The notes: generated from the sequence alone by a model not told the origin. 64,000 bases of DNA from Planctomycetota bacterium (GCA_021161675.1 JAGHAF010000030.1:9376-73375); one strand, 5' to 3'. Numbered from the stretch's first letter, positions 2,675-20,009 are shown. A program made the numbers and translations.

Positions 2675-2676
2675 AA

Positions 2677-3210: not shown

Positions 3211-3477
3211 ATGGAAGCATTTCTTTACACAGCGCTGGGTGTACTGGTAGCGACCTCCTACATGTGCCTCTACCGGATCGGAAGCGGGCCCACGGCGCCC
3301 GACCGCACCGTGGCCATTGACATCCTGGGAACGAGCCTGGTCGGCTTCTGCGCGCTGCTGTGCCTGCTAACCGGACGGGATTTCTACATGAACGTGGCCA
3401 TGGCGTGGGCGCTGCTCAGCTTCATCGGGACGATTGCGCTGGCCAAACACCTGGAAGGAATGGGATTCGATGAATGA
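3211..3477 (+). CDS. mrpF: Na+/H+ antiporter subunit MrpF/MnhF
   Basis: 88 aa, three TM helices, synteny. Confidence 0.65.
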   Translation: MEAFLYTALGVLVATSYMCLYRIGSGPTAPDRTVAIDILGTSLVGFCALLCLLTGRDFYMNVAMAWALLSFIGTIALAKHLEGMGFDE

Positions 3478-3811
3478 ATACATCGGCGTGGCTATAGTAA
3501 TCGTTGGGCTGGCGTTCGACGTGTTCGGGTGCGTCGGTCTGGTCAGGCTGCCGGATATCTACACGCGCCTTCAGGCAGCCACCAAGTGCGTTACCCTGGG
3601 CACTTGCATGATACTGATCGGGATAGCTATCTTGACGGGCCTGAACGCCACCGGGGTCAAGGCCCTGGTCTGCATGGCCTTCGTCCTGATAACCTCCCCC
3701 ACCGCCGCGCACGCCATCGCCCGTGGGGCCTACAAGTTCGGGGTCAAGCTGGAAGAACCGACCGTCGTTGACCGATATGCCGAGACCCAAACCGACGAGG
3801 GCAGGAGCTAA
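3470..3811 (+). CDS. mrpG: Na+/H+ antiporter subunit MrpG/MnhG
   Basis: Start MNEYIGV overlaps the mrpF stop. RLPDIYTRLQAATKCVTLG matches the MnhG signature. Confidence 0.7.
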   Translation: MNEYIGVAIVIVGLAFDVFGCVGLVRLPDIYTRLQAATKCVTLGTCMILIGIAILTGLNATGVKALVCMAFVLITSPTAAHAIARGAYKFGVKLEEPTVVDRYAETQTDEGRS

Positions 3812-3814
3812 CCG

Positions 3815-4408
3815 ATGCGCTTACCCAAACTGCGAGAACTCAAAGAAGCCATAACAGCCGTCCTGCGCGGCCCCTATACTGCCAGGTTCCCGGCGGAGCC
3901 CACCCCCCTGCCCGAGGCTTTTCGCGGCCAGCCCGTCTTCGACGAGGACGAGTGCGTCGGCTGCGGGGCCTGTTACGAAGCCTGCCCGCCAGATGCGATG
4001 GACCTGGTGGACGACGTCGAGGCCGGCGTACGCAGGATAACCATCCATCTGGACCGCTGCATCTTCTGCGGCCAGTGCGAGGCGAACTGCATCACGGAGA
4101 AAGGCATCAAGCTGAGCAACCATTACGATCTGGCCACCACCGACCGGGGCGAACTGCGCGAAAGCGTAGAAAAAGCGCTTTTGATCTGCGAGAGCTGCGG
4201 CGAGGTCATAGGACCGCGCGATCACGTCCGGTGGGTCGCCGAGCGGCTCGGGCCGTTGGGGTTCGCCAACCCCACGCTGCTGCTGACCGCGATGGAGGAC
4301 CTGGACGCGGCGGGTGGCGTTCCGACGCCCTCTGCCCACCTGCGCCGGGGCGACAAGCTGCGCATCACCTGCCCGAAGTGCCGCCAGGTTACATCCCTGC
4401 TCGCCTGA
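3815..4408 (+). CDS. NuoI/HycF/EchF-family 2x[4Fe-4S] ferredoxin-like subunit with extra C-terminal Cys pairs
   Basis: Two CxxCxxCxxxCP motifs (CVGCGACYEACP, CIFCGQCEANC). N-terminal RFPAEPTPLPEAFRG resembles the NuoI YPEEK..PRFRG loop. Extra CESCGEV...CPKCRQV near the C-terminus. Starts 4 nt after the mrpG stop. Confidence 0.8.
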   Translation: MRLPKLRELKEAITAVLRGPYTARFPAEPTPLPEAFRGQPVFDEDECVGCGACYEACPPDAMDLVDDVEAGVRRITIHLDRCIFCGQCEANCITEKGIKLSNHYDLATTDRGELRESVEKALLICESCGEVIGPRDHVRWVAERLGPLGFANPTLLLTAMEDLDAAGGVPTPSAHLRRGDKLRITCPKCRQVTSLLA

Positions 4409-4415: not shown

Positions 4416-4934
4416 TCACCCCGATTCAGGAATCTTCAGCGCTTCAACGAGCGTCTCGACGGCCTTCTCCACCGCCCTGCTCACTTCATCGCTCATCTCA
4501 CTTCCCAGCGAGCAGTCGGCCGGCTCAGCCGCAAGCAGCAGGGGCCGGGCGCCGCACGCCGCCCGCAGGAACTCGGCCCCTACTGCGAGAGACGCCGAAT
4601 GAGTTGACATGTCGTCCTGGCGCAGCCGCTCCGGGCCCATGAGCCGAAGCGTGCCCGGCGGCCGGCCGCTGCGGACGGCGTCAACGAAGATGACGACCTC
4701 CGTGCCCAGCCTGGCAAGCCGTGGCAGTTCGTTCTCAGGAACGGCGCCGCCGTCCGCCACGAGGGCTCCGGTGCGACCGACAAGAGCCTGCGCCACGGAG
4801 GGGCCGAACCCGTCGTCGCCTCGCGCCACGTTGCCGACGCCGAGAATCGCGACGTGGCGCGGATCGGTCTTGCCGATCGCCTCGCGGAGCTGCGCAGCCA
4901 GCGATTTCGCTTCCATGCGGCGCGGCCTCCTCAT
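4416..4934 (-). CDS. [NiFe]-hydrogenase maturation endopeptidase (HycI/HyaD/HoxW family)
   Basis: ILGVGNVARGDDGFGPSVA motif, about 160 aa. Confidence 0.8.
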   Translation of the reverse strand: MRRPRRMEAKSLAAQLREAIGKTDPRHVAILGVGNVARGDDGFGPSVAQALVGRTGALVADGGAVPENELPRLARLGTEVVIFVDAVRSGRPPGTLRLMGPERLRQDDMSTHSASLAVGAEFLRAACGARPLLLAAEPADCSLGSEMSDEVSRAVEKAVETLVEALKIPESG

Positions 4935-5055: not shown

Positions 5056-5403
5056 ATGCATGAACTCAGCCTATCAGCGGGAATGCTCGACATCGCCCTT
5101 GAAGCCGCGAAGGCGCACGGCCACGCTTTGCGCGCGCTCAACATCAAGGTCGGCGCCCTGTCCAGCGCCAGCGCGGAGGCGCTCGACTTCTGCATGAAGA
5201 TGCTCCTCGATGAGAGAAGCATGGGGGATGTCGAGGTCCGAATCCGGGAGGCGCCGGCCCGGGCGCGCTGCGAATGCGGGTACGAAGGAGAGATCAAGAA
5301 CCTCTTTGAGGGGTGCCCGCGCTGCGGTGGCTTTCAGCGTGACATATTGGACGGCCAGGATGTCACTTTGGACACAATAGAGGTCGCAAATGACAAGGAT
5401 TAA
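5056..5403 (+). CDS. hypA: hydrogenase nickel incorporation protein HypA
   Basis: MHELSL start and C-terminal CxxC...CxxC zinc site. Confidence 0.9.
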   Translation: MHELSLSAGMLDIALEAAKAHGHALRALNIKVGALSSASAEALDFCMKMLLDERSMGDVEVRIREAPARARCECGYEGEIKNLFEGCPRCGGFQRDILDGQDVTLDTIEVANDKD

Positions 5404-6031
5404 GCTCAATCGGACAGCGCAAAGCCGGAACCAACCCGTCGCCGAGCAGAACCGGACCAAGTTCCAGGACGCCGGCGTGTTCGTGATGAACCTGATCGGC
5501 TCGCCCGGATGCGGCAAGACCACCATTCTAGAGTACACCGCGCGTCACTGTCCCGGCCAGTCAGCCGTAATCGTGGGCGACGTGAAGACCGCCCTCGACG
5601 CGGACCGTATCTTGCAGTGCGACATCCCGGCATACCCCATCGAGACCGGTGGCAGTTGCCACCTGTCGGCGCAGATGATCGCCGACACTATCGCCCGGCT
5701 CGATCTTGACCAGCTTGACTACCTGTTCATCGAGAACGTGGGCAACCTCGTCTGCCCCTCGACGATGGACCTGGGGGAGAACATCAAAGTCGGGGTTCTC
5801 AGCGTGCCCGAGGGCGACGAAAAAGTCCGGAAATATCCCGCCCTGTTCCTGCGGACCGAAGTGGTGTTCATCAACAAGGCCGACCTGCTCCCATACTGCC
5901 CATATGACGTAGAACGGGTCAAGGAAGACTGCCGCAAGGCAAGGCCGGACGTGAAGGTATTCGAGGTCAGCGCCGCGCAGGGGACCGGCTTTGGCCCGTG
6001 GATGGAGTTCCTGCGGCAACCTGACGTCTGA
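5390..6031 (+). CDS. hypB: hydrogenase nickel incorporation GTPase HypB
   Basis: GSPGCGKTT P-loop and G-domain length. No His-rich tract. Overlaps the hypA stop. Confidence 0.85.
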   Translation: MTRIKLNRTAQSRNQPVAEQNRTKFQDAGVFVMNLIGSPGCGKTTILEYTARHCPGQSAVIVGDVKTALDADRILQCDIPAYPIETGGSCHLSAQMIADTIARLDLDQLDYLFIENVGNLVCPSTMDLGENIKVGVLSVPEGDEKVRKYPALFLRTEVVFINKADLLPYCPYDVERVKEDCRKARPDVKVFEVSAAQGTGFGPWMEFLRQPDV

Positions 6032-6039
6032 GGGCAGGC

Positions 6040-8352
6040 GTGAATCATTCATCCGAAAGCACAGGCGCTTCACAGCGGCGAGTCCTGCTCAGGATCCGCG
6101 GCAGAGTGCAGGGCGTCGGCTTCCGCCCCACTATTTACCGGGTGGTCACGGCGCGCGGCTGCGCCGGCGCGATCCGCAACACGCCGCAGGGCGTCTTTCT
6201 CGATATCGAAGGCCCGGCAGGAGCCGTCACTGAGATCGTGGACGAGTTCCGGCGCATCATTCCCGAGCGCGCCCGTGTGGACGAACTCCTCATTGAAGAG
6301 GCCCAGCCGATGGGCCGCGATCGGTTCGTAATCGAGCCGAGCGCCACTTGCGGGGACAGCCTCCTGCCGATCCCACCGGACCTGGCCATGTGTCCGGCCT
6401 GCAAGGATGAACTGCATCAACCCGCTAACCGCCGGGCCGCCTATCCCTTCAACACCTGCACCGCGTGCGGCCCGCGTTTTAGCATCGCCCGGGCGGTGCC
6501 CTTCGACCGGCCGACAAGCGCCATGGACGAGTTCCCCCTCTGCGACGCCTGCCGCGCCGAGTATGAAGCCCCGGAGGACCGGCGTTTCCACGCGCAGACG
6601 ATGTCGTGTCCGCGTTGCGGTCCGTCCCTTACGTGGACGCCGAACCTGGACGAGTTGAAGTTCGAATCCTTGGCGCCGCTGGATGCCGCCCGCCGGGCGT
6701 TGGCGCGCGGGCGCATTGTGGCCGTCAAGGGCCTCGGCGGTTTCCATCTGGCCTGCGACGCCACGCGCGAGGAAGTCGTCGCAGAACTGCGCAAACGTAA
6801 GGAGCGCCCGCACAAGCCACTGGCTGTCATGACGCCGGACATCGAGAGCTGCCGCGGGTTGTGCATGGTAAGCCGGGGGGAGGAGGAGCTTCTGCGCTCC
6901 GCCTCCGCGCCTATTGTGCTCCTGAAGAAACGCCCTGCCGCGCCGCTTGCCGCAGGCGTCGCCCCGGGCCTCCGGCACGTCGGGGTTATGCTCGCCTATA
7001 CGCCGGTGCATCACATGCTTTTCGACGCGCCCGAGATGCCGCCCGCCCTCATTATGACCAGTTGCAACCGCGCGGACGAGCCCATCGCAATCAGCGCACA
7101 GGAAGTGCTCGAGAGGCTGGGCGACATCGCAGACGCCGTCCTCAGCAACGACCGGCCGATAATAAACCGCTGTGACGACTCCGTGTTCACCTTCCACGCG
7201 GGCGGCCCCGTCCCCATCCGGCGCAGCCGCGGATACGTGCCAGAGCCGATTCTTCTCGCCCGCGCGGGGCCTTCCGTTTTCGCCACCGGCGCCATGTGGA
7301 AGAACGCCTTCGCCCTGACCAGCGGCAGGCGCGCGTTCCTCAGCCAGCACATCGGGGACGTCTCCGACGCCGACAACGCCGCCCACTTCGAGGAAACGTT
7401 CCGCAGATTCTCCGCCCTGCTCAGGCTCGAGCCGGAGCTGATAGCCTGCGACCTGCACCCCGACTATCCGACCACGGCTTTCGCGCAACGCCTTGCCGAG
7501 GAACGCGGCCTACCGCTGGTCCAGGTCCAGCATCATCACGCCCACGTCGCCGCCACGCTCGCCGAACACCGCATCGAGGGGCGGGCAATCGGCGTGAGCA
7601 TGGACGGCGCCGGTCTCGGAGCGGACGGGGCGATATGGGGCGGTGAGTTCTTCATCGCGGACCAGGCCTCGTACGATCGGAAGTTCCACCTGCGCTACGT
7701 GCCCATGCCCGGCGGAGAGAAGGCCGTCCTCGAGCCCGACAGGATGGCCCTGGCGCACCTAACGGCGGCCGTCGGAGCCGACGAGGCCCGCGCCCGAATG
7801 CAACGATATCTCGGCCCTGAGAGGTGTGCCAGCCTGCTGGAGATCATGAAAAGGCGCCGCTACTCGCCGCCGACCTCAAGCTGCGGGCGCCTTTTCGACG
7901 CCGTCGCCGCGCTGCTGGACGTGCGCCACTCGATAACCTACGAAGGCCAGGCCGCCTGCGAGCTGGAGGCCATCACCGACGAAAGCGAACGCGGCAGCTA
8001 CGCCTTCTGCTACGATGGCGGCGAGATAGACTGCGCGCCGGTCTTCAGACTGGTCTGTGAAGACCTCGACGAGGGGACGAAGGCCCCTGTGATCGCCGCC
8101 CGATTCCACAACGCCGTGGTGGAGATGATCCGCGAGGGATGCCGCCGCCTGCGGGAGGAGACGGGAATCGTCCGGGTTGCCCTTTCCGGAGGGGTGATGC
8201 AAAACAGGCTCCTTGTCGACCGGACAGTGCCTGTCCTGCGCCAGGAGGGCTTCAACGTGCTGCTGCGCCGACGCGTGCCGCCTAACGACGGCGGCATCTG
8301 CCTCGGCCAGGCCGCCTGCGCCATAGCTCAACTTTCAACGACAGGGGGTTAG
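6040..8352 (+). CDS. hypF: carbamoyltransferase HypF
   Basis: 770 aa: acylphosphatase-like N-terminus, two CxxC zinc fingers (CPACK...CTACGPRF, CDACR...CPRCGP), YrdC-like and Kae1-like domains. Confidence 0.9.
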   Translation: MNHSSESTGASQRRVLLRIRGRVQGVGFRPTIYRVVTARGCAGAIRNTPQGVFLDIEGPAGAVTEIVDEFRRIIPERARVDELLIEEAQPMGRDRFVIEPSATCGDSLLPIPPDLAMCPACKDELHQPANRRAAYPFNTCTACGPRFSIARAVPFDRPTSAMDEFPLCDACRAEYEAPEDRRFHAQTMSCPRCGPSLTWTPNLDELKFESLAPLDAARRALARGRIVAVKGLGGFHLACDATREEVVAELRKRKERPHKPLAVMTPDIESCRGLCMVSRGEEELLRSASAPIVLLKKRPAAPLAAGVAPGLRHVGVMLAYTPVHHMLFDAPEMPPALIMTSCNRADEPIAISAQEVLERLGDIADAVLSNDRPIINRCDDSVFTFHAGGPVPIRRSRGYVPEPILLARAGPSVFATGAMWKNAFALTSGRRAFLSQHIGDVSDADNAAHFEETFRRFSALLRLEPELIACDLHPDYPTTAFAQRLAEERGLPLVQVQHHHAHVAATLAEHRIEGRAIGVSMDGAGLGADGAIWGGEFFIADQASYDRKFHLRYVPMPGGEKAVLEPDRMALAHLTAAVGADEARARMQRYLGPERCASLLEIMKRRRYSPPTSSCGRLFDAVAALLDVRHSITYEGQAACELEAITDESERGSYAFCYDGGEIDCAPVFRLVCEDLDEGTKAPVIAARFHNAVVEMIREGCRRLREETGIVRVALSGGVMQNRLLVDRTVPVLRQEGFNVLLRRRVPPNDGGICLGQAACAIAQLSTTGG

Positions 8353-8510
8353 GTATTTAGGCTATTAGACTATTAGTTACGGCAAAGCCAACGCTAAAGC
8401 CAACGGCAAAACTGTGGGCGGAAGCTTTCTTTTTCTGTTTTCATCCTTCATAATCTATCCTTCATCCTTCTGAAAGCGGTGCTGAGAGGTCCCTAAATAG
8501 CAGTTCACAA

Positions 8511-8724
8511 ACTTGCGACATCACATCTGGTGGGACCAGGCCGCCCGAGGCCGATCGGTACCCGTCCGCGTGGCCGGCCCGCCCACACACGGTAGGCGCG
8601 GCGTCCCCGCCGCGCCCGGGTCCGGCGGGGACGCCGGACCTACCGAAGGTGTTGGGTAAGCGCCGCGGGGCCGCGCTGCGGAGGCACTGAGCAGCATGTT
8701 GCATAATCATGAACTTGTATTTAG
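8511..8724 (+). promoter_or_regulatory. conserved element copy A upstream of hypC: conserved 5' block (ACTTGCGACATCACATCTGGTGGG), variable GC-rich hairpin interior, conserved 3' block (GCATGTTGCATAATCATGAACTTGTATTTAG)
   Basis: Termini nearly identical to copy B at 10153..10296. 5' TTGCGACAT can pair with 3' ATGTTGCAT as 8 bp with one G-U. Interior holds a strong hairpin GGCGTCCCCGCCG...CGGCGGGGACGCC. Confidence 0.5.
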
Positions 8725-8744
8725 ACGCTTAGAGTGAAAGAAAA

Positions 8745-8975
8745 ATGTGCCTGGCAATACCACTGAAGATAGTTGAAGTTGAGGGTCAAATCGGCAGAGT
8801 CAAACTGGATGCAACGACCCGCGAGGTGGGTCTCCAGTTACTTGACGACGCTCGCCCCGGCGATTACGTGCTTGTCCATGCCGGTTTCGCGATACAGAAG
8901 TTGGACGAGCAGGAGGCCGAGGAGACGTTGCGCCTGTGGGACGAGATGGCCCGCCTGGAATTGGGACAGCCATGA
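8745..8975 (+). CDS. hypC: hydrogenase assembly chaperone HypC
   Basis: MCLAIP N-terminus, 76 aa. Confidence 0.9.
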   Translation: MCLAIPLKIVEVEGQIGRVKLDATTREVGLQLLDDARPGDYVLVHAGFAIQKLDEQEAEETLRLWDEMARLELGQP

Positions 8976-10111
8976 GATTCATCGACGACTTCCGCAACGC
9001 GGAACATGTCAAGGCGCTCGCCGGGAGCATCGAGAGGCGTGCAGCGCAGGCGGGCAGGCCGTTGCGTTTCATGGAGGTCTGCGGCGGGCATACGATGGCC
9101 ATCCACCGATTCGGCCTTCCGCAACTGCTTCCCGAAAGCGTCGAACTGCTCAGCGGCCCCGGATGCCCCGTCTGTGTCACGCCGACCACGTATATTGATC
9201 GCGCAATTGAGCTGGGCCGCGATGGCGCCCTGCTGACCACGTTCGGCGACCTCTACCGCGTTCCCGGCAGCGAGCGCAGCGTGGAGGGAGCCTCCGCCGC
9301 GGGGCTTCTGGAGGCGCTGGTAGTCTATTCGCCGCGGGACGCCCTTCGCGCCGCTCAGGACAGCCACGACCGAGAGGTCGTGTTCCTCGCCATCGGATTC
9401 GAGACGACCGCGCCGACTGTCGCAGCGACGCTTCTAGAGGCGAAGCGCCTGGGCCTTCGGAACTTCCGCGTCCTGTCGGGACATAAGACCATGCCCCGCG
9501 CCCTCCGCGCTTTGTTAGAAGCGCCCGAGGTGGCGATAGACGGCTTCATTCTGCCGGGCCACGTCTGCACGATAACCGGCGCCAGGCCGTTTACCTTCAT
9601 TCCCGATGAGTTCGGCGTGCCCTGCTGCGTGACGGGGTTCGAACCGGCGGACATCCTGGCGAGCATAGAGAAGCTGACGGAGCTTTGTGGCCCGGGGCGG
9701 CGACCCGCCCTTGAGAACGCCTACCGCCGGGCTGTCCGGCCCGATGGCAACGAGAAGGCCCTCGCCCTACTGGAGCGCGTTATGGTCCCGGTCGACGCCC
9801 AATGGCGTGGGATCGGTCATATCCCGGGGAGCGGACTGGATTTGGGGCCGCAGTGGCTCGAGTTCCGCGTTGAGCCTCCCGACCCGGAGCGGCCCTCCGC
9901 GGAATATAGCGCCTGCCGCTGCGGGGATGTCCTTCGCGGGCTGATCAAGCCTGCGGAGTGTTCCCTCTTCGGCGAGGTCTGCACGCCGGACAGCCCCGTG
10001 GGGCCCTGCATGGTTTCGTCCGAAGGTTCCTGCGCGGCACACTTCAAATATGGTTCCCAAACATTCACCGCAGGGCTCGCAGAGATCGCAGAGAACGGCA
10101 AAGGATATTGA
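8972..10111 (+). CDS. hypD: hydrogenase maturation factor HypD
   Basis: Start MRFIDDFRN overlaps the hypC stop (ATGA). Motifs CGGHT, GPGCPVC and FEP-type C-terminus with CxxC. Confidence 0.9.
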   Translation: MRFIDDFRNAEHVKALAGSIERRAAQAGRPLRFMEVCGGHTMAIHRFGLPQLLPESVELLSGPGCPVCVTPTTYIDRAIELGRDGALLTTFGDLYRVPGSERSVEGASAAGLLEALVVYSPRDALRAAQDSHDREVVFLAIGFETTAPTVAATLLEAKRLGLRNFRVLSGHKTMPRALRALLEAPEVAIDGFILPGHVCTITGARPFTFIPDEFGVPCCVTGFEPADILASIEKLTELCGPGRRPALENAYRRAVRPDGNEKALALLERVMVPVDAQWRGIGHIPGSGLDLGPQWLEFRVEPPDPERPSAEYSACRCGDVLRGLIKPAECSLFGEVCTPDSPVGPCMVSSEGSCAAHFKYGSQTFTAGLAEIAENGKGY

Positions 10112-10152
10112 CTATTACGGCCGGTTTTTCAGTGTCTGAATAGGAGTTCAGG

Positions 10153-10296
10153 AAATTGCAACATCACATCTGGTGGGTCCGGTCCGCGCGAGACCGCTCA
10201 GCAGGCGCCCGCGTAGCCGGTCCCTCCTCACGGGCAGGCGCGGCGCACTCCAGAGGCAGTCAGCGGCATGTTGCATAATCATGAAGTTGTATTTAG
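10153..10296 (+). promoter_or_regulatory. conserved element copy B upstream of hypE (same conserved termini as copy A, shorter and different interior)
   Basis: AAATTGCAACATCACATCTGGTGGG ... GGCATGTTGCATAATCATGAAGTTGTATTTAG. 5' TTGCAACAT is fully complementary to 3' ATGTTGCA. Confidence 0.5.
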
Positions 10297-10373
10297 CGTG
10301 GCGTTAGTGTTCCCTGTGTCCTGAGTGCAGAGAGAAGCCTGAACTCTTACGATGAACCGGCAGAGGAACCAAT

Positions 10374-11384
10374 ATGACTGAAAAGACCATCAAACTGGGA
10401 CACGGCAGCGGCGGCAGCCTTACGCGCGCGCTGATCGAAGAGACTCTGCTGCGCTACTTCGACTCCCCCCTGCTGGCCGGCCTGCCGGACAGCGCGAAGG
10501 TTCAGCTCCAGGGCGTCCCCGCCGCTTTCACCACGGACACCTACGTGGTAGACCCGCTTTTCTTCCCGGGCGGCGACATCGGGAAGCTGGCCGTATACGG
10601 AACGGTCAACGACCTGGCCGTCGTAGGGGCCATCCCGCGCTTTATCTCCTGTGCGCTCATCATCGAGGAAGGGCTCCCGCAATCGGACCTGCGAACCATC
10701 CTGAGTTCCATGCGCCAGGCCGCAGATCACGCAGGCACGGAAGTGGTCACAGGCGATACGAAGGTCGTTCCACGAGGTAAAGCCGATTCGATCTTCATCA
10801 ATACCGCCGGCATTGGCGCGTTCCGCCCGGAGAGCGCCCTGCCCGATGCCGAGATGAAGGCGGGCGACGTCGTACTCGTCAGCGGCCCCATCGGGGACCA
10901 CGGCGCGGCTGTCCTATCGGCGCGAGAGGGCCTGAACCTGGACTCCGCCATCCTGAGCGATTGCGCCCCGGTGACAGAGGTGGCGCAGGCTATCCTCGCC
11001 GGCGCCAGGCGCACGTCGTTCCTGCGCGACGTCACCCGCGGGGGCCTTGTGACCATCCTGAACGAAGCCGTCGGCGGCGCCCCTCTCGGCCTCCTGCTCA
11101 GGGAACAGGACATACCGGTCCGCCCAGGGGTCCGCTCAATCTGCGAGCTATTGGGGCTCGACCCGTTCTACCTCGCCTGTGAGGGGCGGGTGGCGGCAGT
11201 GATTGACGCCGAAAGCGCCCCGATTGTGGTCGAGGCCGTCCGCAGAACCCCTGCAGGACAGGACGCGACGATCATCGGCGAGGCCACCGCAGAGTACGCG
11301 GGAGAAATAGTTATCGAGACGGCCTTCGGGACGCATCGCCTGGTGCAGATGCTCAGCGGGGAGCAACTGCCGCGCATTTGCTGA
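10374..11384 (+). CDS. hypE: carbamoyl dehydratase HypE
   Basis: PurM-like fold, HGSGG N-terminus, C-terminal PRIC. Confidence 0.9.
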   Translation: MTEKTIKLGHGSGGSLTRALIEETLLRYFDSPLLAGLPDSAKVQLQGVPAAFTTDTYVVDPLFFPGGDIGKLAVYGTVNDLAVVGAIPRFISCALIIEEGLPQSDLRTILSSMRQAADHAGTEVVTGDTKVVPRGKADSIFINTAGIGAFRPESALPDAEMKAGDVVLVSGPIGDHGAAVLSAREGLNLDSAILSDCAPVTEVAQAILAGARRTSFLRDVTRGGLVTILNEAVGGAPLGLLLREQDIPVRPGVRSICELLGLDPFYLACEGRVAAVIDAESAPIVVEAVRRTPAGQDATIIGEATAEYAGEIVIETAFGTHRLVQMLSGEQLPRIC

Positions 11385-11405
11385 GGATCGGACTCGAATG
11401 GTGGT

Positions 11406-11570
11406 TCATTTGCGCCGCAGCATTCCGCGCACGATCAGCTCCACGGCCTTGCTTTCGTCCATGCCCCGGCCCATGAGCGTCTGAAGCCGCCCGGAGTCCG
11501 CGCTTCCGATGGCGGCCTCGTGGGTCAGGCGCCAGGGAATAGCGCAGGTCGCTGGCTTTTGGAAGAGACA
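11406..11570 (-). pseudogene. remnant of a sufB/sufD-family Fe-S assembly gene (C-terminal ~40 codons only)
   Basis: Minus-strand frame reads ...LTHEAAIGSADSGRLQTLMGRGMDESKAVELIVRGMLRRK*. This matches the conserved SufB/SufD C-terminus (HEAxxxxIxxxQLFYLxxRGIxEExAxxMIVxGF). A stop lies immediately upstream in frame and there is no start. Confidence 0.4.
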
Positions 11571-11689
11571 TATTCATAGTCCTCATGTTTGACCTGGATA
11601 TAGCGCAAAAGTCAGAGTATAAACGCCCTCGGGCACAAAGCCACTTACAAACGGGAGGACATTTTCTCAACAAATCACTGCCGGGGCTC

Positions 11690-11718
11690 TTGACGAAAAC
11701 CCCCCTTTGCTTTACGTT
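11690..11718 (+). promoter_or_regulatory. candidate sigma-70 promoter for the hydrogenase structural genes (TTGACG-17 nt-TACGTT)
   Basis: Hexamers with 17-nt spacing about 100 nt upstream of the small-subunit ATG. GGGAGA RBS 7 nt before the ATG at 11821. Confidence 0.35.
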
Positions 11719-11820
11719 CATTGCCAGAGTTGCGCGACAGATGGCGACGAGCGCTTTTGTTGCCCTAATTCCTTCTTGCGCAGGGCCTTATCCCTATTCG
11801 TAAAGCTCCGGGAGAACCCC

Positions 11821-12675
11821 ATGGCATGTAATGAAGTTCCCGTTGTCTGGCTCCAGGGGGGCGGATGTTCGGGCTGCACCGTTTCCCTGGCGAACTCGCT
11901 GTTCCCGTCACTGCGAAACATCCTGCTCGATCAGCTCCTGCCTGGCACGCACCTGAGCCTTCTCTATCACCCCACCCTGATGGCCGGGCAAGGCGAGGGG
12001 GCCTTTTCAGTCCTGGACCGGCCGCTCGGTCAGGGCTACGTGCTCGCCATCGAGGGCGCCATTCCAGAGAACGATCAATTCTGCACCATCGGCGAGAAGA
12101 ACGGTCAGGAGGTGACGATTCTCTCCAAGTTCGTGGAACTGGCCTGCGACGCCTCGCTCGTGCTGGCCGTGGGAACGTGTTCTTCCTTCGGCGGGATACC
12201 CGCCGGCTCGCCCAATCCTGGCGGATTCGCTTCGGCCGGCCAGGTAGCGGCCAAATATGATATCACGACGCCGGTGGTGAACGTGCCGGGCTGCCCGGCT
12301 CACCCCGATTGGATAGTCACCGCCATAGCCGAATTCCTCTTGGCCGGCGCCGGGGGACTCAGGCTGGATGCGCTGGGACGGCCCATGTCCATTTACGGGC
12401 AACTGATACATGAGAACTGCCCCCGGCGCGCCTACTACGACGAGGGCAAATTCGCTGAGAAACCGGGCGACCCAGAGTGCCTCCACGAACTCGGCTGCAA
12501 GGGGCCGATCACATACGCGGACTGCCCACTTCGACGGTGGAACAACGCGACAAACTGGTGCGTCGGGGCCGGCGGGCCCTGCAACGGCTGCACTCAACCG
12601 GAGTACATTGACGAGACGACCCCCTTCTACCAGAAGCTGCCCGAGGACGCCCTGCCGAAGATCGGCCAGGCGTAA
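11821..12675 (+). CDS. [NiFe]-hydrogenase small subunit, cytoplasmic type (no Tat signal peptide)
   Basis: VVWLQGGGCSGC proximal-cluster motif. C-terminal CPRR..C / CLHELGCKGP / CPLRRWN..NWCVGAGGPCNGC medial and distal cluster ligands. Real start is the MACNEV ATG at 11821, not the tracked 11707. No RRxFxK motif. Confidence 0.9.
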   Translation: MACNEVPVVWLQGGGCSGCTVSLANSLFPSLRNILLDQLLPGTHLSLLYHPTLMAGQGEGAFSVLDRPLGQGYVLAIEGAIPENDQFCTIGEKNGQEVTILSKFVELACDASLVLAVGTCSSFGGIPAGSPNPGGFASAGQVAAKYDITTPVVNVPGCPAHPDWIVTAIAEFLLAGAGGLRLDALGRPMSIYGQLIHENCPRRAYYDEGKFAEKPGDPECLHELGCKGPITYADCPLRRWNNATNWCVGAGGPCNGCTQPEYIDETTPFYQKLPEDALPKIGQA

Positions 12676-12705
12676 TCGTTCACGCTGTTTCCACAGGAGA
12701 TAAGG

Positions 12706-14244
12706 ATGAGCAAAAGCACAATCACGATTGACCCCGTCACCCGGATCGAAGGTCATCTCGGGGTCCGCGTGGAGATGGAGGACGGCGTGATTACTGAGGC
12801 ACGGTGCTCGGGCACGCTTTTCCGGGGCCTGGAGATCATTCTGCGTGGAAGGGACCCTCGAGATGCCCCCATCCTGACTCAGCGCATCTGCGGAGTCTGC
12901 CCGCAGTCCCATGCGACCGCGTCTGCGCTGGCGCTTGATGAAGCATATGGCGTAACCGGCCGGATACCTCAGAACGGCCGCCTGCTGCGGGACATCATGT
13001 TGGGCGCTAATTTTCTCCAGTCGCACGTGCTGCACTTCTATCATCTGGCCGCGCTCGATTACGTGGACGTGACGGCAGTCCAGGGCTATACCGGGAGCGA
13101 TCCCGGCCTCCAATCGGTGAAGGGCTTTATCTCGCGCGGCCAACTGGCGCCGTTCGCGCCGCGCTACGAAGGGGATTATCGCCTCGAGCCCGATGAGAAC
13201 ATTGCGGCGACCAGACACTACATCGAGGCCCTCGACGTCCGGCGAAACGCCCACGAATTGGGGGCGCTGTTCGGCGGCAAAATGCCACATCAATGCACGG
13301 TCAACGTGGGGGGCGTGGGCACGGCGGTCAGCGCGGATAAGATCGTTCGGGCGCTGTCCTACGTCGAGAGTATCCTCGAGTTTATCGACAGCGCATATCT
13401 GCCGGACATCCTCCTCGTCGCCGGGCGTTATCCGGACTACTTCGATATCGGGAGGGGCTGCTCCCGGTTCCTCGCGTTCGGAGCCATGGAGTCAACCGGC
13501 ACGCCGCTTTTTGCTTCAGGCGTCCTCTCGCCCGATGGCCGGTTTTCGGATTTCGAGCGTGAGAATGTCAGTGAGGAAATCGCCACCTCTTACTACTCCG
13601 AGGAGTCGAAGGCCGACACGCCCTTTGACAGCACAACAGTGCCCAATGCGGAAAAGGACGGCGCCTATTCGTGGCTCAAGTCGCCGCGCTACGACGGAAA
13701 GCCCTGCGAGGTGGGGCCACTTGCGCGGATGATGGTCGGCCACGCCGCCGGCGACGAGCGCATTAGAACGGCTGTCGAAGCCCTGCTGGATCAAACCGGC
13801 CTCGACGCCTGCCGGCTCAACTCCACCCTCGGGAGGCACGCCGCCCGCGCGCTGGAGACCAAGCTGGTGGCCACCGCAATGCGAGAATGGATACTGGCCC
13901 TCAGGCCCGGCGAGCCGTGCACGCTGGCGCCGGAGGTCGTGGAATCCGGCCAGGGCGTCGGGCTGACCGAGGCCCCTCGCGGCGCGCTGAGCCACTGGGT
14001 CACGATTCAAGACGGCAAGCTAGCCAATTACCAGTGCGTGGTTCCCACGACGTGGAACGGCAGCCCTCGAGACAGTGAAGGCGTGCCGGGACCGATCGAA
14101 CAGGCGATTGAAGGCGAAGCCATCCGGGATTCGGACAATCCGTTCGAGATAGTGAGGATTATCCGCTCCTTTGATCCGTGCCTGGCGTGCGCCGTTCACC
14201 TGCAACGGCCCAGGGGCGAGTTACACATAGAGTTGCCCATATAG
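12706..14244 (+). CDS. [NiFe]-hydrogenase large subunit
   Basis: N-terminal L1 motif RICGVCPQSH. C-terminal L2 motif DPCLACAVH followed by a 14-aa extension (LQRPRGELHIELPI), the expected substrate of the maturation endopeptidase. 512 aa. Confidence 0.9.
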   Translation: MSKSTITIDPVTRIEGHLGVRVEMEDGVITEARCSGTLFRGLEIILRGRDPRDAPILTQRICGVCPQSHATASALALDEAYGVTGRIPQNGRLLRDIMLGANFLQSHVLHFYHLAALDYVDVTAVQGYTGSDPGLQSVKGFISRGQLAPFAPRYEGDYRLEPDENIAATRHYIEALDVRRNAHELGALFGGKMPHQCTVNVGGVGTAVSADKIVRALSYVESILEFIDSAYLPDILLVAGRYPDYFDIGRGCSRFLAFGAMESTGTPLFASGVLSPDGRFSDFERENVSEEIATSYYSEESKADTPFDSTTVPNAEKDGAYSWLKSPRYDGKPCEVGPLARMMVGHAAGDERIRTAVEALLDQTGLDACRLNSTLGRHAARALETKLVATAMREWILALRPGEPCTLAPEVVESGQGVGLTEAPRGALSHWVTIQDGKLANYQCVVPTTWNGSPRDSEGVPGPIEQAIEGEAIRDSDNPFEIVRIIRSFDPCLACAVHLQRPRGELHIELPI

Positions 14245-14269
14245 CATAAGAGAATCAAGGAGCTCGGCG

Positions 14270-14956
14270 ATGTTAGTGACCGAATTGAAGCCTCAAGATG
14301 AGATACTGGAGGGGCTTGCCGATGATTCCAGCGTCTTCCTTCTGGGCTGCGACGGGTGCGCAAGCGCCTGCGAAACCGGCGGGGCGGAGAACCTGCCCGC
14401 CCTGGCGGAAATGCTTCAGCAGGCAGGCAAGGAGCTGACCGGCCAGACCGCGGTTGACTACCTTTGCAACAAGTCTTTGATCCGCTCATACCTGCGCCCC
14501 TACGAGGCGCAAATAATGGACGCCGACAGCGTCCTGGTGGCCACGTGTGGGGTCGGCGTTCAATGTGTGGCCGACAGCGTCCTGAAGCGCGTCCGGACCG
14601 CTTGCAATACCGTCAACATGGGCGGCGTGAGCGGCGTGCAGATGTCGGGCGAACGCTGCGCCGAATGCGGCGACTGCCTGCTCAGCCAGACCGGCGGCAT
14701 CTGCCCCATCACCGCCTGCTCCAAGAGCATGGTCAACGGGCCGTGCGGCGGGACCTCCAGCGACGGGAAGTGCGAGGTGGACAACAAGCGCGACTGCGGC
14801 TGGTATCGGATCTATCAACGCCTGAAAGAACTCGACGCGCTCGACCAGATGAAGGTAATCATCCCGCCGAAACGACACGGCCTTTTCCTGCCCACTTACG
14901 AGACAATGACCGGCGAGTTCTGGGCCGTGGAAGGCCGGCCGGAGGGGGAGGCGTAA
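14270..14956 (+). CDS. cysteine-rich protein resembling MetV / methylene-THF reductase C-terminal-domain family (putative Fe-S or Zn electron-transfer partner)
   Basis: 228 aa. Motifs GCDGCASACETGG, ATCGVGVQCV, CAECGDCLLSQTGGICPITACSKSMVNGPCGGTSSDGKCEV, WYRIYQRL. Starts 26 nt after the large-subunit stop with an AGGAG RBS. Confidence 0.55.
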   Translation: MLVTELKPQDEILEGLADDSSVFLLGCDGCASACETGGAENLPALAEMLQQAGKELTGQTAVDYLCNKSLIRSYLRPYEAQIMDADSVLVATCGVGVQCVADSVLKRVRTACNTVNMGGVSGVQMSGERCAECGDCLLSQTGGICPITACSKSMVNGPCGGTSSDGKCEVDNKRDCGWYRIYQRLKELDALDQMKVIIPPKRHGLFLPTYETMTGEFWAVEGRPEGEA

Positions 14957-15004
14957 TCTGGCGAGAAGCGCGGGCGATAGACGTCCTGCCCGCCCCCTGC
15001 CGCC

Positions 15005-17077
15005 TCACCAGGACGGCGCCGCTTCGATCAGCTTCGCCGCCGCGTCGCTGTCGAGGGGCCTGGAGAAGAAGAAGCCCTGCGCATATTCGCACTCGAGTTC
15101 TCTGAGGCGGGCCAGGTGCTCAGCCGATTCTACGCCTTCCGCAACGACGGCCATGCCGAGGGAATGCGCCAACGTGATGATCGTGCGGACGATCTCGGCG
15201 TATTCCGCCTTCTTGTCCATGCCGCCGACGAAGCTGCTGTCTATCTTCAGCGTGCTTATGGGAAACTGGTGCAAGTAGCTGAGGGACGAATAACCCGTCC
15301 CGAAGTCATCCATCTCCAGCAGAACGCTCATAGCCTGGAGATCAAAGAGGATCCTGACCTGCTGTGGCGCGTTCTCCATTACCGTCGTCTCGGTAATCTC
15401 CAGCTTCAGGCACTCGGCGGCAAGGCCGGTTTCACGAAGAACGCGGCGCACGTGCGAGATAAGATCAGGCTCCGCAAACGTCTTGCTTGACAGGTTAACG
15501 TTCACTTCGAGGGGCCGCACAGAAGGAAACTGAGCCTGCCATTCGCAAGCCTGCTGGCAGGCTTCGTACATCACCCACTGGTCTATGGAAGCGATCTGGC
15601 CGCTATCTTCAGCGATAGGCAAGAACGCACCCGGCGCGATAACACCACGCTGCGGATGTTCCCAGCGCACAAGCGCCTCAAAGCCGGTGACCCTGCCGTC
15701 CTGGAGACGGATAATCGGTTGATACTGGATCGCCAGCTCGCGGCGATCCAAAGCCTTGCGCAGGTCCGCGTCTAATTGCAGGCGCAGGACCGCGTAATCG
15801 CGCATGTGCTGGTCAAAGATGCCGTAGCGCGCCTTGCCCTCGGCTTTGGCGTGGTACATGGCGGCGTCGGCATCGCGCAGCGCTTCCTCCGGGGTCTCGT
15901 ATACGCCGGCAGAGCCCAGTGCAATCCCGATGCTTGCGCTGACGAACACCTCTTGGCCCAGCACCTCAAGAGGCGGCGCAAGCCCTTCGAGCACCCGCTC
16001 AGCGATGGCGCCCGCGCCCCTGGCGTCGTGGACATCACCTGCCAGAATGGCGAACTCGTCCCCGCCAAGCCTTGCAACCATATCTATGGCGCGCATACAC
16101 TTCAGCAGCCTTCGGGAAGTCTCCATAAGCAGTCCATCGCCCGCCACGTGCCCAAGGCTGTCGTTGATAAACTTGAAATTATCCAGGTCCACAAGGAGCA
16201 CTGCGTAAACATAGCCGTCTTGCCGCCTGGCGCGTTGAATCGAATAACGCAGCCTCTCCATGAACAGAGCGCGATTCGGCAGGTCAGTCAGCCCGTCGTG
16301 GACTGCGCCGTACGCCAACTCCTCCTCCATGCGTTTGCGGCGGGTAACGTCACGGAGCAAGGCCAGGTGAGCCATTTGCCCCTTCCACTCCATTTCGGCC
16401 ACGCGCATTTCGGCCACTACCTGAGTTGCGTCGCCGCGAATGATCTGGAGTTCCTGCGTCCTTCCGCTCAGCACCGGAAAGCCGAAGGGCTCGTCAAGCA
16501 TGTCGGTGGCGCCCCGACCCATGAGCGCCTCACCGGCAGGATTGACAAGCTGCACAATGCCATCCTTGTTCACGATTATTATGCCATCGGCGCTTGTTCG
16601 GATGATGCTGCGAAAGCGGCCCTCGCTGGCCTTCAGCTCGTTCTCTCTCCGCTTATGCTCAAGGGCGGAACGCAGAACACGCTGGAGCATCCTGCCGCCA
16701 AAATCCCCCTTTACCAGGTAGTCGTCCGCATATCCGTAGCGGATTCCCTTCCGGACCACCTTGTTCAGAAGCTCGGTGAGCACGACAACAGGTATGTCCG
16801 GGGCCTTGCGGCGAAATTCCACAAGCGTATTGCGCCCTTTTGAATCCGGCAATTCAAGGTCCAGCAAGACCACGTCAATGCCGCCCTCGGCAATGCGCTT
16901 GAGTCCCGCGCGAAGGCAATCAGCCGATTCCAACGCAAAGGCGCTCTTTTGACCTTTCGCGAGCGCCGCCCGCACCAGTTCCACATCCCGAGGATTATGA
17001 TCGATAAGCAACACATTGATGGCGTCTGCGCTTATTCTACCGCCTCCGTGCATCGTCCACAGCAAGGATTGACTCAC
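15005..17077 (-). CDS. response regulator receiver-PAS-GGDEF-EAL protein (c-di-GMP turnover)
   Basis: N-terminal receiver domain with the phospho-acceptor Asp in VVLLDLELPD, a PAS domain, a GGDEF motif (RLGGDEF), and EAL-domain motifs (EVLVRW, DDFGTGYSSL). Confidence 0.85.
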   Translation of the reverse strand: MSQSLLWTMHGGGRISADAINVLLIDHNPRDVELVRAALAKGQKSAFALESADCLRAGLKRIAEGGIDVVLLDLELPDSKGRNTLVEFRRKAPDIPVVVLTELLNKVVRKGIRYGYADDYLVKGDFGGRMLQRVLRSALEHKRRENELKASEGRFRSIIRTSADGIIIVNKDGIVQLVNPAGEALMGRGATDMLDEPFGFPVLSGRTQELQIIRGDATQVVAEMRVAEMEWKGQMAHLALLRDVTRRKRMEEELAYGAVHDGLTDLPNRALFMERLRYSIQRARRQDGYVYAVLLVDLDNFKFINDSLGHVAGDGLLMETSRRLLKCMRAIDMVARLGGDEFAILAGDVHDARGAGAIAERVLEGLAPPLEVLGQEVFVSASIGIALGSAGVYETPEEALRDADAAMYHAKAEGKARYGIFDQHMRDYAVLRLQLDADLRKALDRRELAIQYQPIIRLQDGRVTGFEALVRWEHPQRGVIAPGAFLPIAEDSGQIASIDQWVMYEACQQACEWQAQFPSVRPLEVNVNLSSKTFAEPDLISHVRRVLRETGLAAECLKLEITETTVMENAPQQVRILFDLQAMSVLLEMDDFGTGYSSLSYLHQFPISTLKIDSSFVGGMDKKAEYAEIVRTIITLAHSLGMAVVAEGVESAEHLARLRELECEYAQGFFFSRPLDSDAAAKLIEAAPSW

Positions 17078-18064: not shown

Positions 18065-19747
18065 GTGAAAGTCCTGGTGCCCGATAAAATGAACGAAGAG
18101 CGCCTCAGCACAGCCGTGGACGGCCCGAACAGCCTCGCGGCCGGAGAGTTCGCCCCGGAGGGCCGGGAGGCGCTGGAACTGGCCATCCTCAGCGAGGTAA
18201 GCCGCACCATAGGCGACGCCCTCGAGCTGGAGAAGGTTTTCGAGGAGACAATGCGCGTCCTGGCAGGAAAGCTGCGGATGAAACGGGGCACGTTGGTGCT
18301 GCTGGACAGGACAGCTAATCGCCTAAAAATCGTAGCCGCTCATGGCCTGAGCCCCCAGGAAAAGCAACGAGGAAAATACCGGATAGGCGAAGGAGTTACT
18401 GGAAGGGTTGTGAAAACGGGGCAACCGGTCGCAATAGCAGATATCTGCAAGAACCCCTTATTCTTGAATCGCACTGGAGCCAGAGGCGCCGAGAAGGAGC
18501 GCGGCCACGTATCCTTCGTATGCGTCCCGCTGCGCGTGGACAACGAAGTCGTGGGCGCTATCAGCATAGACCGCGACTTCGTGGACGAGCAGACCCTCGC
18601 CAAGGACCAGCGCCTCCTCCATATAATCGGATCACTTATATCCCAAGCCATCAAGATAAACCGAATGGTGATGATAGACAGGCAACTGTTGCTCGATGAG
18701 AACGTCCGCCTGCGCAAGGACCTGACGTCCCGCTACAAGTTCGGCAGTATCGTGGCCGTCAGCGGCGCCATGAAGGACGTAGTCGCCACGGCGGCCACCG
18801 TCGCCAAGAGCGGCGCCACCGTCCTGATACGCGGCGAGACCGGCACGGGCAAGGAACTGATAGCAAGCGTGCTGCACTATAACAGCGACCGGGCGAAAGG
18901 CCCCTTTATAAAGGTCAATTGCAGCGCATTATCCGAAGGGCTGCTGGAGACCGAACTTTTCGGCCACGTCCGAGGCGCCTTCACCGGCGCCGTCGAGGAC
19001 CGCAAAGGCAGATTCGAGCTTGCCGACGGCGGCACGATATTCCTGGACGAAGTGGGCTCGATGAGCGAACAGCTCCAGGCAAAGCTTTTGCGCGTGCTCC
19101 AGGAGAGAGAATTCGAGCGGGTCGGCGGCGCCAAAACCATCGAGATTGACGTGCGAGTCGTTGCGGCGACAAACATGGACCTGGAGGAGCTTATGTCAGA
19201 AGGCGCCTTCAGGCAAGACCTGTTCTACCGCCTCAACGTGATACCCATCTTCATACCCCCCTTGCGAGAACGCCGGGAGGATATCCAGTTTCTGGTGCAG
19301 CATTTCCTGGACAAGTATAATGAACATTACGGCAAGGCCGTAGAGAAGATGTCTCGCCAGGTCATGGACGCGCTGCTGGAATATCCCTGGCCCGGCAACG
19401 TGCGTGAACTGGAAAGCTGCATCGAAAGGGCTGTCGTTCTCAGCCAGGACGGCGCCCTATCGATGAGTCTTCTGCCGATAAACATCCGCAGTTTCAGAGA
19501 ATCAGAAAGGCGCCCGGGGCCCATTCGGCAAGCTTCTGAGGATGTTCTGGCGCAGTTGATAAAGGGTCTACGCTCATCACACGTGTCAGGCGCGTCCGGT
19601 CTGCACACCACCGTTATATCACAGGTCGAGAAGGCGCTGCTAACAGAAATACTCGAAGCCAATGATCACGTGCAAACTCGAGCCGCCAGAGAGCTGGGCA
19701 TAACCCGTAACACTCTGCGCAAACGGATAAGAGAGTACGGACTTTAG
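18065..19747 (+). CDS. sigma-54-dependent transcriptional activator with N-terminal GAF domain (FhlA/HyfR/NifA-like)
   Basis: GAF region, AAA+ sigma-54 interaction domain (GETGTGKE Walker A, GAFTGA, ESELFGH, WPGNVREL), C-terminal Fis-type HTH. GTG start; alternative ATG at 18092. Confidence 0.85.
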   Translation: MKVLVPDKMNEERLSTAVDGPNSLAAGEFAPEGREALELAILSEVSRTIGDALELEKVFEETMRVLAGKLRMKRGTLVLLDRTANRLKIVAAHGLSPQEKQRGKYRIGEGVTGRVVKTGQPVAIADICKNPLFLNRTGARGAEKERGHVSFVCVPLRVDNEVVGAISIDRDFVDEQTLAKDQRLLHIIGSLISQAIKINRMVMIDRQLLLDENVRLRKDLTSRYKFGSIVAVSGAMKDVVATAATVAKSGATVLIRGETGTGKELIASVLHYNSDRAKGPFIKVNCSALSEGLLETELFGHVRGAFTGAVEDRKGRFELADGGTIFLDEVGSMSEQLQAKLLRVLQEREFERVGGAKTIEIDVRVVAATNMDLEELMSEGAFRQDLFYRLNVIPIFIPPLRERREDIQFLVQHFLDKYNEHYGKAVEKMSRQVMDALLEYPWPGNVRELESCIERAVVLSQDGALSMSLLPINIRSFRESERRPGPIRQASEDVLAQLIKGLRSSHVSGASGLHTTVISQVEKALLTEILEANDHVQTRAARELGITRNTLRKRIREYGL

Positions 19748-20009
19748 CCCGCTGGTTACGTTGTGCCCAGGTGGGCGCCTCGTAACCAGCGGCCCGTGTG
19801 TTCTCAGCAGCAGGGCCGATCTTTACCCCTCGGCGTATGTCCCTTTGCTGCGAGAGGTTGCGAGCAGCCCGGCGGTACTGCAGGCCTTCTCGCGGGTACT
19901 TTGGCACGAGGCTTGCTCTACTACTTCTCTCCTTATGTAGTCACAGAGCAAGCTTTGCTACGGTGCTCATCCCCCGAACCGGGAAACATAACCGAAGGAG
20001 TTTCTGAAC

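Follow-up and report, generated by a model that had tools for sequence, protein, structure and literature searches.

Where do the electrons go from a [NiFe]-hydrogenase whose third gene encodes a subunit of methylenetetrahydrofolate reductase (MTHFR)? The question is raised by three consecutive genes (small subunit, large subunit and MetV; hydSL-metV) on a 64-kb stretch of DNA, referred to below as the window, from a metagenome-assembled genome (MAG) labelled Planctomycetes/Planctomycetota at NCBI. The window spans approximately positions 11952-75951 of the 92.6-kb scaffold SPET22-1_SAMN18353073_METAG-scaffold_91. Based on comparison with related loci we propose, with a probability of roughly 0.65, that the three proteins make up the hydrogenase half of a cytoplasmic H2:methylene-tetrahydrofolate (methylene-THF) oxidoreductase of four proteins, the flavoprotein MetF and the maturation protease being encoded elsewhere. 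The recurrent linkage of such hydrogenases to metV and metF (together MetVF), their lack of twin-arginine translocation (Tat) signals and the Wood-Ljungdahl genes found beside them point to this four-protein assembly as the real unit.

A total of 80 related loci, the closest in a large-subunit scan of one genome per GTDB species, were compared. Gene censuses were based on tblastn; greedy open reading frame (ORF) calling gave spurious antisense ORFs in high-GC loci. The order small-large-(HycI)-MetV-MetF was found in 45 of the 80, with the protease HycI usually between the large subunit and MetV, and MetF comes after MetV in every complete locus. All 45 were obtained from MAGs, with no cultured isolate among them, under labels including Brocadiia and other Planctomycetota, Anaerolineae, Dehalococcoidia, Desulfobacteraceae, Armatimonadota, Hebobacteria, Aerophobetes, Omnitrophota, Ratteibacteria, Elusimicrobiota and Bacillota; the module occurs under at least 12 phylum-level labels. 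MetV homologues of 67-82% identity were found in small-large-HycI-MetV-MetF operons, and both the hydrogenase and the MetV of the window are nearest to two full operons, L016 and L001 (70-79% identity). Starting instead from MetV, Joint Genome Institute (JGI) metagenome contigs were scanned with a MetV alignment and the best 80 of 587 relatives kept. Of these, 53 were assessable (at least 2.5 kb of upstream sequence), and a hydrogenase lies upstream of MetV in 37 of the 53, including all loci with a MetV at least 46% identical to that of the window. The first-pass annotation of the window had regarded a hydrogenase with MetV as its third gene as an uncommon arrangement, which this distribution contradicts. 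It had proposed looking for the same third gene in the nearest neighbours; MetV does recur there, with the amendment that MetF follows it and HycI usually precedes it in the 45 loci.

Among the scorable loci, Tat signals and MetVF exclude each other: 45 have MetVF and no Tat signal, none has both, 17 have a Tat signal without MetVF and five have neither (Fisher p 7.8e-12). The last group comprises a Peptococcaceae enzyme of 40% identity and four from Rhodocyclales at 33%. A rough neighbour-joining tree groups the MetVF-linked enzymes, that of the window among them, into a single large cluster. Pairwise distances across the 45 operons give correlations of 0.89 for MetV with the small subunit and 0.83 with the large subunit, as tight as that between the two hydrogenase subunits (r 0.87), and lower values for MetF (0.47-0.69). 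By this measure MetV behaves like a hydrogenase subunit.

Flanking ORFs of the related loci were clustered and representatives scanned against Pfam. Recurrent neighbours of the module include FolD, formate-THF ligase (Fhs), an FchA-type cyclohydrolase, CdhD/AcsD, AcsB, CooS and RACo, and at least one of FolD, Fhs, FchA, AcsB, CdhD, CooS and RACo lies no more than 10 kb away in 20 of the 45 MetVF-linked loci. In some, such as L054, FolD is directly upstream of the small subunit, and L004 has the order folD-cooC-acsE-cdh-...-hydrogenase-metV-metF-hycI-hypAB. Wood-Ljungdahl neighbours outside the MetVF-linked group were found only in L050 (FolD, on a contig that is truncated) and L072 (CooS, with no Tat signal), and no Tat-bearing locus has such a gene nearby. 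The module probably feeds electrons from H2 directly into Wood-Ljungdahl CO2 fixation.

The five-gene operon order is not kept in the window, which has small-large-MetV only. A search with the MetF of L016 retrieved P0167, a MetF found in exactly the same sources as the window MetV. It is encoded on scaffold_1144 (locus L089, 6970-7851), which shares both its assembly and its JGI sample with the window. The accessions of the window MetV (MCD6415515) and the L089 MetF (MCD6416887) are 1,372 apart, GC content is 61.6% in the window and 63.4% in L089, and their tetranucleotide correlation of 0.985 was the highest of all loci compared. Genes on L089 are ordered chorismate-binding enzyme, class IV aminotransferase, HycI, MetF, CSD, DUF2007, Usp, TsaD, a gene denoted x and PPDK. 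Both flanks are common to the Brocadiia-clade loci L008 and L009, and the upstream flank to L015; all three keep small-large-HycI-MetV-MetF between the aminotransferase and the downstream genes. L089 thus matches the ancestral site minus exactly the small subunit, large subunit and MetV, and the window holds exactly these three. Taken together, the two loci contain each of the five module genes once, and the gene set is complete across both scaffolds. MetV had been described in the first-pass annotation as the only partner of the hydrogenase; this no longer stands, HycI and MetF being encoded on scaffold_1144 of the same assembly, and a canonical partner located beyond the window is among the outcomes that the annotation had itself named as refuting its reading.

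The genome appears to encode two maturation proteases. The orthologue of the operon-type HycI is on L089 and is absent from the 64 kb of the window, in which a divergent HycI, only ~30% identical to the operon type, more likely serves the group 4 hydrogenase encoded upstream than HydSL. The L089 MetF is nearest to the L006 group (80-83% identity) and 71% identical to that of L016. We infer reciprocal loss after the acquisition or duplication of a second cassette: an ancestral small-large-hycI-metV-metF operon would have been split, with hycI and metF staying at the ancestral site on scaffold_1144 and small-large-metV placed behind the hyp cluster and the group 4 membrane hydrogenase.

The three ORFs of the first-pass annotation were recovered with unchanged boundaries (Table 1), and most of what it had read from them was borne out. 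As it had stated, the small subunit has proximal, medial and distal cluster ligands and no Tat signal. The N-terminus is MACNEVPVVWLQGGGCSGC, with the proximal CxxC 15 residues after the start, and the ligands are C16/C19/C120/C158 (proximal), C235/C247/C254/C257 (medial) and H197/C200/C220/C226 (distal), all 12 being present in the window protein and conserved in 41-46 of 46 MetVF-linked homologues. A four-Cys medial site is typical of NiFeSe-type enzymes, and on this basis the small subunit is predicted to hold three [4Fe-4S] clusters, the cluster types being deduced from the ligands. No twin-arginine signal (RRxF, h-region) was found on the small subunit, which predicts a cytoplasmic enzyme. 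An in-frame extension upstream of the ATG encodes a superficially twin-arginine-like stretch, 'FLRRALSLF', which we rejected as a hidden Tat signal: only ~6 hydrophobic residues follow the motif, with no h-region, it lies ~28 residues from the CxxC compared with ~46 in Tat-bearing relatives, and close relatives have stop codons in the same stretch. The resemblance is probably fortuitous; alternatively, the stretch could derive from a signal peptide that has since disappeared.

The large subunit likewise has the expected motifs, L1 RICGVC (C62/C65) and L2 SFDPCLACAVH (C492/C495), and a 14-residue C-terminal tail after L2 (LQRPRGELHIELPI), putatively for endopeptidase processing. It scores 646 bits against NCBIfam NF033181 (cut-off 600). 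Desulfovibrio and Desulfomicrobium supply the closest PDB matches, periplasmic [NiFeSe]/[NiFe] enzymes with E values of 1e-122 to 1e-110, and group 3 large subunits align only to the first ~120 residues. Judged by Pfam, motifs and PDB matches the enzyme is group-1a-like, yet it lacks the Tat signal and periplasmic location that define group 1. No transmembrane helix was predicted in the small, large or MetV subunit. Ribosome-binding sites are present, and the gaps are 30 nt between the small and large subunit genes and 25 nt between the large subunit gene and metV. Pfam scans of long ORFs across the window found no cytochrome b, HoxEFU diaphorase or Hdr, in agreement with the first-pass annotation, and likewise no cytochrome c3, membrane-anchor partner or PF02662 (MvhD) match. 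The same small-large-MetV order, followed by a convergent GGDEF/EAL gene, is present in three contigs from two datasets (the source scaffold and two independently assembled JGI contigs) and is therefore not an assembly artefact.

Profile search, as had been suggested, supports the reading of the third gene as MetV: the protein scores 108 bits against PF12225 (cut-off 23) and is 50-82% identical, over at least 96% of its length, to nearly all of the 120 PF12225 proteins listed. The motifs noted earlier (GCDGCASAC and ICPITACSKSMVNGPCGG) are present, and AAGGAG lies 7 nt before the ATG; corrections are needed to the cysteine count, which is 15 and not about 20, and to the gap upstream, which had been given as 26 nt. 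Eleven cysteines are invariant (C27, C30, C66, C130, C133, C136, C145, C150, C159, C168 and C176), C34 is conserved in 85% and C93 in 96%, and the window protein retains 47 of 47 invariant family positions. These cysteines comprise an N-domain set C27/C30/C34/C66/C93 (Cx2Cx3C...C...C), a ferredoxin-type site C130x2C133x2C136x8C145P (Cx2Cx2Cx8CP) and a second four-Cys set, C150/C159/C168/C176. The (MetVF)2 enzyme of C. ljungdahlii is reported to contain ~15 Fe (PMC8760232), suggesting by analogy about two [4Fe-4S] clusters per MetV. An AlphaFold2 model has a confident alpha/beta N-domain (residues 1-116) and a Cys-rich region of low confidence, as expected without cofactors; Foldseek returned no significant match to it, the best (E 0.007) being generic Rossmann-like half-domains, none of them MvhD-like. 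On sequence evidence the third gene is a true MetV, and the protein is very probably the electron-transfer partner of the hydrogenase.

Table 1 Positions of the hydrogenase-MetV genes and of other features in the window
Feature	Coordinates	Strand	Details
[NiFe]-hydrogenase small subunit (HydS/HysB-like)	11821..12675	+	284 aa; PF01058 and PF14720 matches
[NiFe]-hydrogenase large subunit, group-1a-like	12706..14244	+	512 aa; PF00374, E 6e-153
MetV, iron-sulfur subunit of MetVF-type methylene-THF reductase	14270..14956	+	228 aa; PF12225, E 1.5e-31
In-frame extension 5' of small-subunit ATG	11707-11820	+	encodes 'FLRRALSLFVKLRENP', superficially twin-arginine-like
Intergenic region hypE-small subunit, presumed promoter region	11385..11820	+	sequence read
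Group 4 Mbh/Mrp-type membrane [NiFe]-hydrogenase tail	270-4408	+	continues upstream on source contig (L172 1376-13294)
Divergent HycI-type endopeptidase	4416..4916	-	PF01750, E 2e-13; between group 4 cluster and hypA
hypA	5083-5403	+	Pfam/NCBIfam
hypB	5390-6031	+	Pfam/NCBIfam
hypF	6040-8352	+	Pfam/NCBIfam
hypC	8745-8975	+	Pfam/NCBIfam
hypD	8972-10111	+	Pfam/NCBIfam
hypE	10374-11384	+	Pfam/NCBIfam
GAF-sigma54 NifA-like activator	18065-19747		
Perfect sigma-54 promoter consensus TGGCACGAGGCTTGCT	19902-19917	+	directly after NifA-like activator

Under the proposed mechanism, the Ni-Fe site of the large subunit would oxidise H2, and the small subunit would relay the electrons via its proximal, medial and His-ligated distal clusters to the clusters of MetV, the predicted adaptor between the distal cluster and MetF. 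The electrons would then pass to the MetF flavin, where methylene-THF would be reduced to methyl-THF. The standard potentials E0' are -414 mV for H2 and approximately -200 mV for the CH2-THF/CH3-THF couple. Calculated from these textbook values, H2-dependent methylene-THF reduction is exergonic by ~41 kJ/mol and favourable at environmental H2 levels.

The wider neighbourhood of the three genes is a hydrogenase island, with the gene order group 4 cluster, divergent HycI, hypA-B-F-C-D-E and hydSL-metV. The hyp genes (5083..11384), for NiFe cofactor maturation, are directly upstream of hydSL-metV and do not adjoin the operon in Brocadiia-clade relatives, indicating that the cassette joined a pre-existing island. 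The group 4 cluster is complete, comprising NuoH-like, NuoB-like small, 30-kDa and 393-aa large subunits and two antiporter-M subunits, as well as MbhD/E, MnhB, MnhE, MrpF, MnhG and Fer4 proteins, and is preceded by Fer4_22 and FAD/NAD-binding proteins. Intracellular H2 cycling is a possibility for HydSL-MetV in this setting. Neither a sigma-70-type nor a sigma-54-type consensus was found in the presumed promoter region, and consensus scans for promoters and terminators over 11300-15200 gave no useful signal. Downstream, a convergent response-regulator-PAS-GGDEF-EAL gene, absent from all related loci, ends 48 nt from metV. The NifA-like activator lies beyond it, and the perfect sigma-54 promoter is ~90 nt upstream of genes for glutamate dehydrogenase (GDH), a class-II glutamine amidotransferase, glutamine synthetase and carbamoyl-phosphate synthase; activator and gene run look like a nitrogen-assimilation regulon. 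Regulation of the hydrogenase by this activator was considered and rejected, as the only perfect sigma-54 promoter precedes GDH and none precedes the hydrogenase. Both the GGDEF/EAL gene and the activator appear unrelated to the hydrogenase.

Further features of the window include a methionine biosynthesis cluster on the minus strand (35835-38883) with MetW, a MetX-like alpha/beta hydrolase and an O-acetylhomoserine sulfhydrylase-like pyridoxal-phosphate enzyme; methionine synthesis uses methyl-THF, the product of MetF, and any functional tie to the hydrogenase would be speculative. An operon with a MoxR AAA ATPase, DUF58/VWA and BatA 'aerotolerance'-type genes occupies 54675-62641 on the plus strand, and its last member, a 1,295-aa ORF (58754-62641), has no Pfam match. 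Some related loci depart from the common layout. The large subunit of L004 (7224-7985, Deltaproteobacteria MAG CP070817.1) was called as a 253-aa fragment, with no small subunit found in this locus, and could represent decay, a frameshift or an assembly problem. In eight Anaerolineae and Dehalococcoidia loci (L019, L022, L023, L025, L026, L038, L039 and L096) MetV and/or MetF occur around the hydrogenase in two distinct copies, with second MetV copies 35-45% identical to that of the window, and a cNMP-binding histidine kinase is encoded between the hydrogenase and one MetF in L019 (11633-13516) and L025 (15319-16506). Six Gemmatimonadota and Phycisphaerae loci (L020, L030, L031, L032, L040 and L051), ~54% identical to the window large subunit, have the order large-HycI-small; MetVF is in none of the six, and a Tat signal is clear in L020, L030-32 and L051, the small-subunit N-terminus of L040 not having been recovered.

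Compared with known systems, the hydrogenase is closest to the periplasmic group 1a [NiFeSe]/[NiFe] HysAB of D. vulgaris Hildenborough and Desulfomicrobium baculatum (PDB 5jsu, 2wpn and 1cc1), which includes the best large-subunit match (E 1e-122). It shares with HysAB the L1/L2 motifs and the four-Cys medial site of the small subunit, and differs in having no Tat signal, Cys instead of selenocysteine at the active site, and MetV-MetF in the stead of a cytochrome c3/b partner. Known MTHFR types are MetF alone, MetVF (C. ljungdahlii, T. kivui), MetVF-RnfC2 (A. woodii) and MetFV-HdrABC-MvhD (M. thermoacetica). The acetogen MetVF-type enzymes and the present module have in common a MetV with PF12225, MetF (PF02219) as catalytic flavoprotein, and adjacent metV and metF, in this case in the relatives; in this genome the two are separated. 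Electron input in the module would be a two-subunit [NiFe]-hydrogenase, unlike ferredoxin, RnfC2/NADH or HdrABC-MvhD, and such a hydrogenase-linked form was not found among the MTHFR types described in the literature searched. MvhAGD-HdrABC (group 3c) and the putatively sensory group 2c are likewise cytoplasmic [NiFe]-hydrogenases with dedicated partners. MvhA, however, matches only residues 6-120 (E 1e-35), with no MvhD/Hdr in the window, and neither the L2 motif nor the genetic linkage of group 2c is present. A functional analogy, with no sequence relationship, can be drawn to the hydrogen-dependent CO2 reductase (HDCR) of Acetobacterium woodii and Thermoanaerobacter kivui. In HDCR, iron-sulfur subunits hard-wire a hydrogenase to a reductase of the Wood-Ljungdahl pathway, which permits direct use of H2 with no soluble carrier; HDCR differs in combining an [FeFe]-hydrogenase with a formate dehydrogenase. 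HDCR is named in PMC10472528.

Coupling of a hydrogenase to MetVF is not unprecedented as an idea. In Great Salt Lake MAGs of Ca. Bipolaricaulia, group 1a HysAB has been reported to adjoin metVF and may supply electrons to it, and HydDB scores these MetVF-adjacent hydrogenases as group 1a (PMC11287216, 2024). That report gives the arrangement one sentence and two operational taxonomic units, and does not deal with Tat signals, distribution, co-evolution, a split operon or Brocadiia. It was the only publication found to mention hydrogenase-MetVF adjacency, which goes unmentioned in the literature searched on Omnitrophota, marine Chloroflexi, Acetothermia, anaerobic methanotrophic archaea (ANME), anammox and flavin-based bifurcation. 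Our literature search found no biochemistry on hydrogenase-MetVF, nor any description of the breadth of the module, the correlation with Tat loss, the co-evolution of MetV with the hydrogenase or the split arrangement.

The same complex might instead work in reverse, oxidising methyl-THF and releasing H2 in a Wood-Ljungdahl pathway that runs oxidatively, for syntrophic oxidation of acetate or methyl groups. The module is present in sediment Dehalococcoidia, Anaerolineae and Desulfobacteraceae MAGs, lineages discussed for this pathway, and its nearest solved relatives are of the [NiFeSe] type, good producers of H2. Oxidation of methyl-THF is also recognised as a thermodynamic bottleneck for acetate oxidisers living in syntrophy (PMC10689502), though reverse electron transport has been proposed as a requirement of this step in the acetate oxidisers known (PMC10689502) and the operon has no energy-input gene. 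The reaction would be endergonic by ~41 kJ/mol under standard conditions; by calculation from standard potentials it would require H2 below ~1 Pa even at a favourable methyl/methylene ratio, and we consider net operation in this direction unlikely. Somewhat less probable again is a hydrogenase that works with MetV and without MetF, MetV being a general ferredoxin-like electron output to another acceptor; it corresponds to the 'only partner' reading of the first-pass annotation. This would fit the apparently tight linkage of the three genes, the absence of MetF and operon-type HycI from the operon and the window, and a phylogenetic affinity of the cassette that differs from that of the MetF in the genome. 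It sits poorly with the position of MetF after MetV in every complete relative, the retention of all 47 invariant positions by the window MetV, the absence of an alternative acceptor gene nearby, and the persistence at the ancestral site of an intact MetF and operon-type HycI, the exact complement of the window.

The disruption of the operon relative to all relatives could also mean that hydSL-metV is a decaying remnant that lost its function after the break-up; with three full-length ORFs, all metal ligands and invariant residues intact, an identical arrangement in three independently assembled contigs, and clean, reciprocal deletions that leave one copy of each of the five genes, we regard this as improbable. 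Least credible of all is an H2-sensing regulatory hydrogenase (group 2b/2c-like) acting through the response-regulator-PAS-GGDEF-EAL protein and/or the sigma-54 activator, an idea prompted by the proximity of these two genes. The GGDEF gene is convergent and missing from every related locus, the one perfect sigma-54 promoter belongs to GDH, the nearest relatives are group 1a enzymes, and the large subunit keeps its 14-residue tail, which sensory hydrogenases lack. Its L2 motif, SFDPCLACAVH, also departs from the group 2c consensus SFDxCLVCTVH (PMC4853749).

Several observations weigh against the proposed H2:methylene-THF oxidoreductase. All evidence for the module is comparative-genomic, from which we infer a physical complex, its catalytic direction, H2 as sole donor and a single genome for both loci. 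MetF and other Wood-Ljungdahl genes are absent from the 64-kb window (tblastn), and L089 is assigned to the same genome on the basis of a shared assembly name, closely spaced accessions, similar composition and a gene content complementary to that of the window. The small, large and MetV subunits of the window are nearest to L016/L001, and the L089 MetF to the L006 group; the two halves differ in history and might not be matched partners. No Brocadiia-clade locus adjoins other Wood-Ljungdahl genes, and a sequence search of the PDB found no solved structure of any MetV relative. Finally, the neighbour-joining tree is crude, and the Tat-bearing Gemmatimonadota/Phycisphaerae clade (large-HycI-small) nests within the MetVF-linked cluster, a pattern that a re-export event could explain, as could an artefact of the tree.

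Taking the hydrogenase-MetVF module and its genomic setting together, we advance a broader interpretation tentatively, at somewhat short of even odds. HydSL-MetV-MetF would constitute a fifth MTHFR class, a 'hydrogen-dependent MTHFR' analogous to HDCR, employed by numerous uncultured anaerobes with the Wood-Ljungdahl pathway (Brocadiia relatives, Anaerolineae, Dehalococcoidia, Omnitrophota, Armatimonadota, Hebobacteria and others) and routinely mis-scored as a periplasmic respiratory 'group 1a' enzyme in MAG surveys. In the present organism, ferredoxin-driven, ion-pumping H2 production by the group 4 Mbh/Mrp enzyme would be followed by cytoplasmic recapture of H2 for methylene-THF reduction. 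If true, such intracellular H2 cycling could allow the most exergonic step of the Wood-Ljungdahl pathway to be linked to energy conservation.

The electron donor of MetVF is an open problem in Wood-Ljungdahl bioenergetics; in acetogens the physiological donor is still under debate, and ferredoxin in this role is still called a hypothesis (PMC8760232). A hydrogenase hard-wired to MetVF would give a testable answer for many uncultured anaerobes and would define a further MTHFR architecture. The split operon offers a natural experiment, in which a hydrogenase-MetV half and a HycI-MetF half have different evolutionary histories. Hydrogenase classifiers give these enzymes the 'group 1a' label, which is read as periplasmic respiratory H2 uptake, for example in sulfate or organohalide respiration; should the members that lack Tat and are linked to MetVF prove to be cytoplasmic enzymes of carbon fixation, their role is misassigned in many reconstructions based on sediment MAGs.

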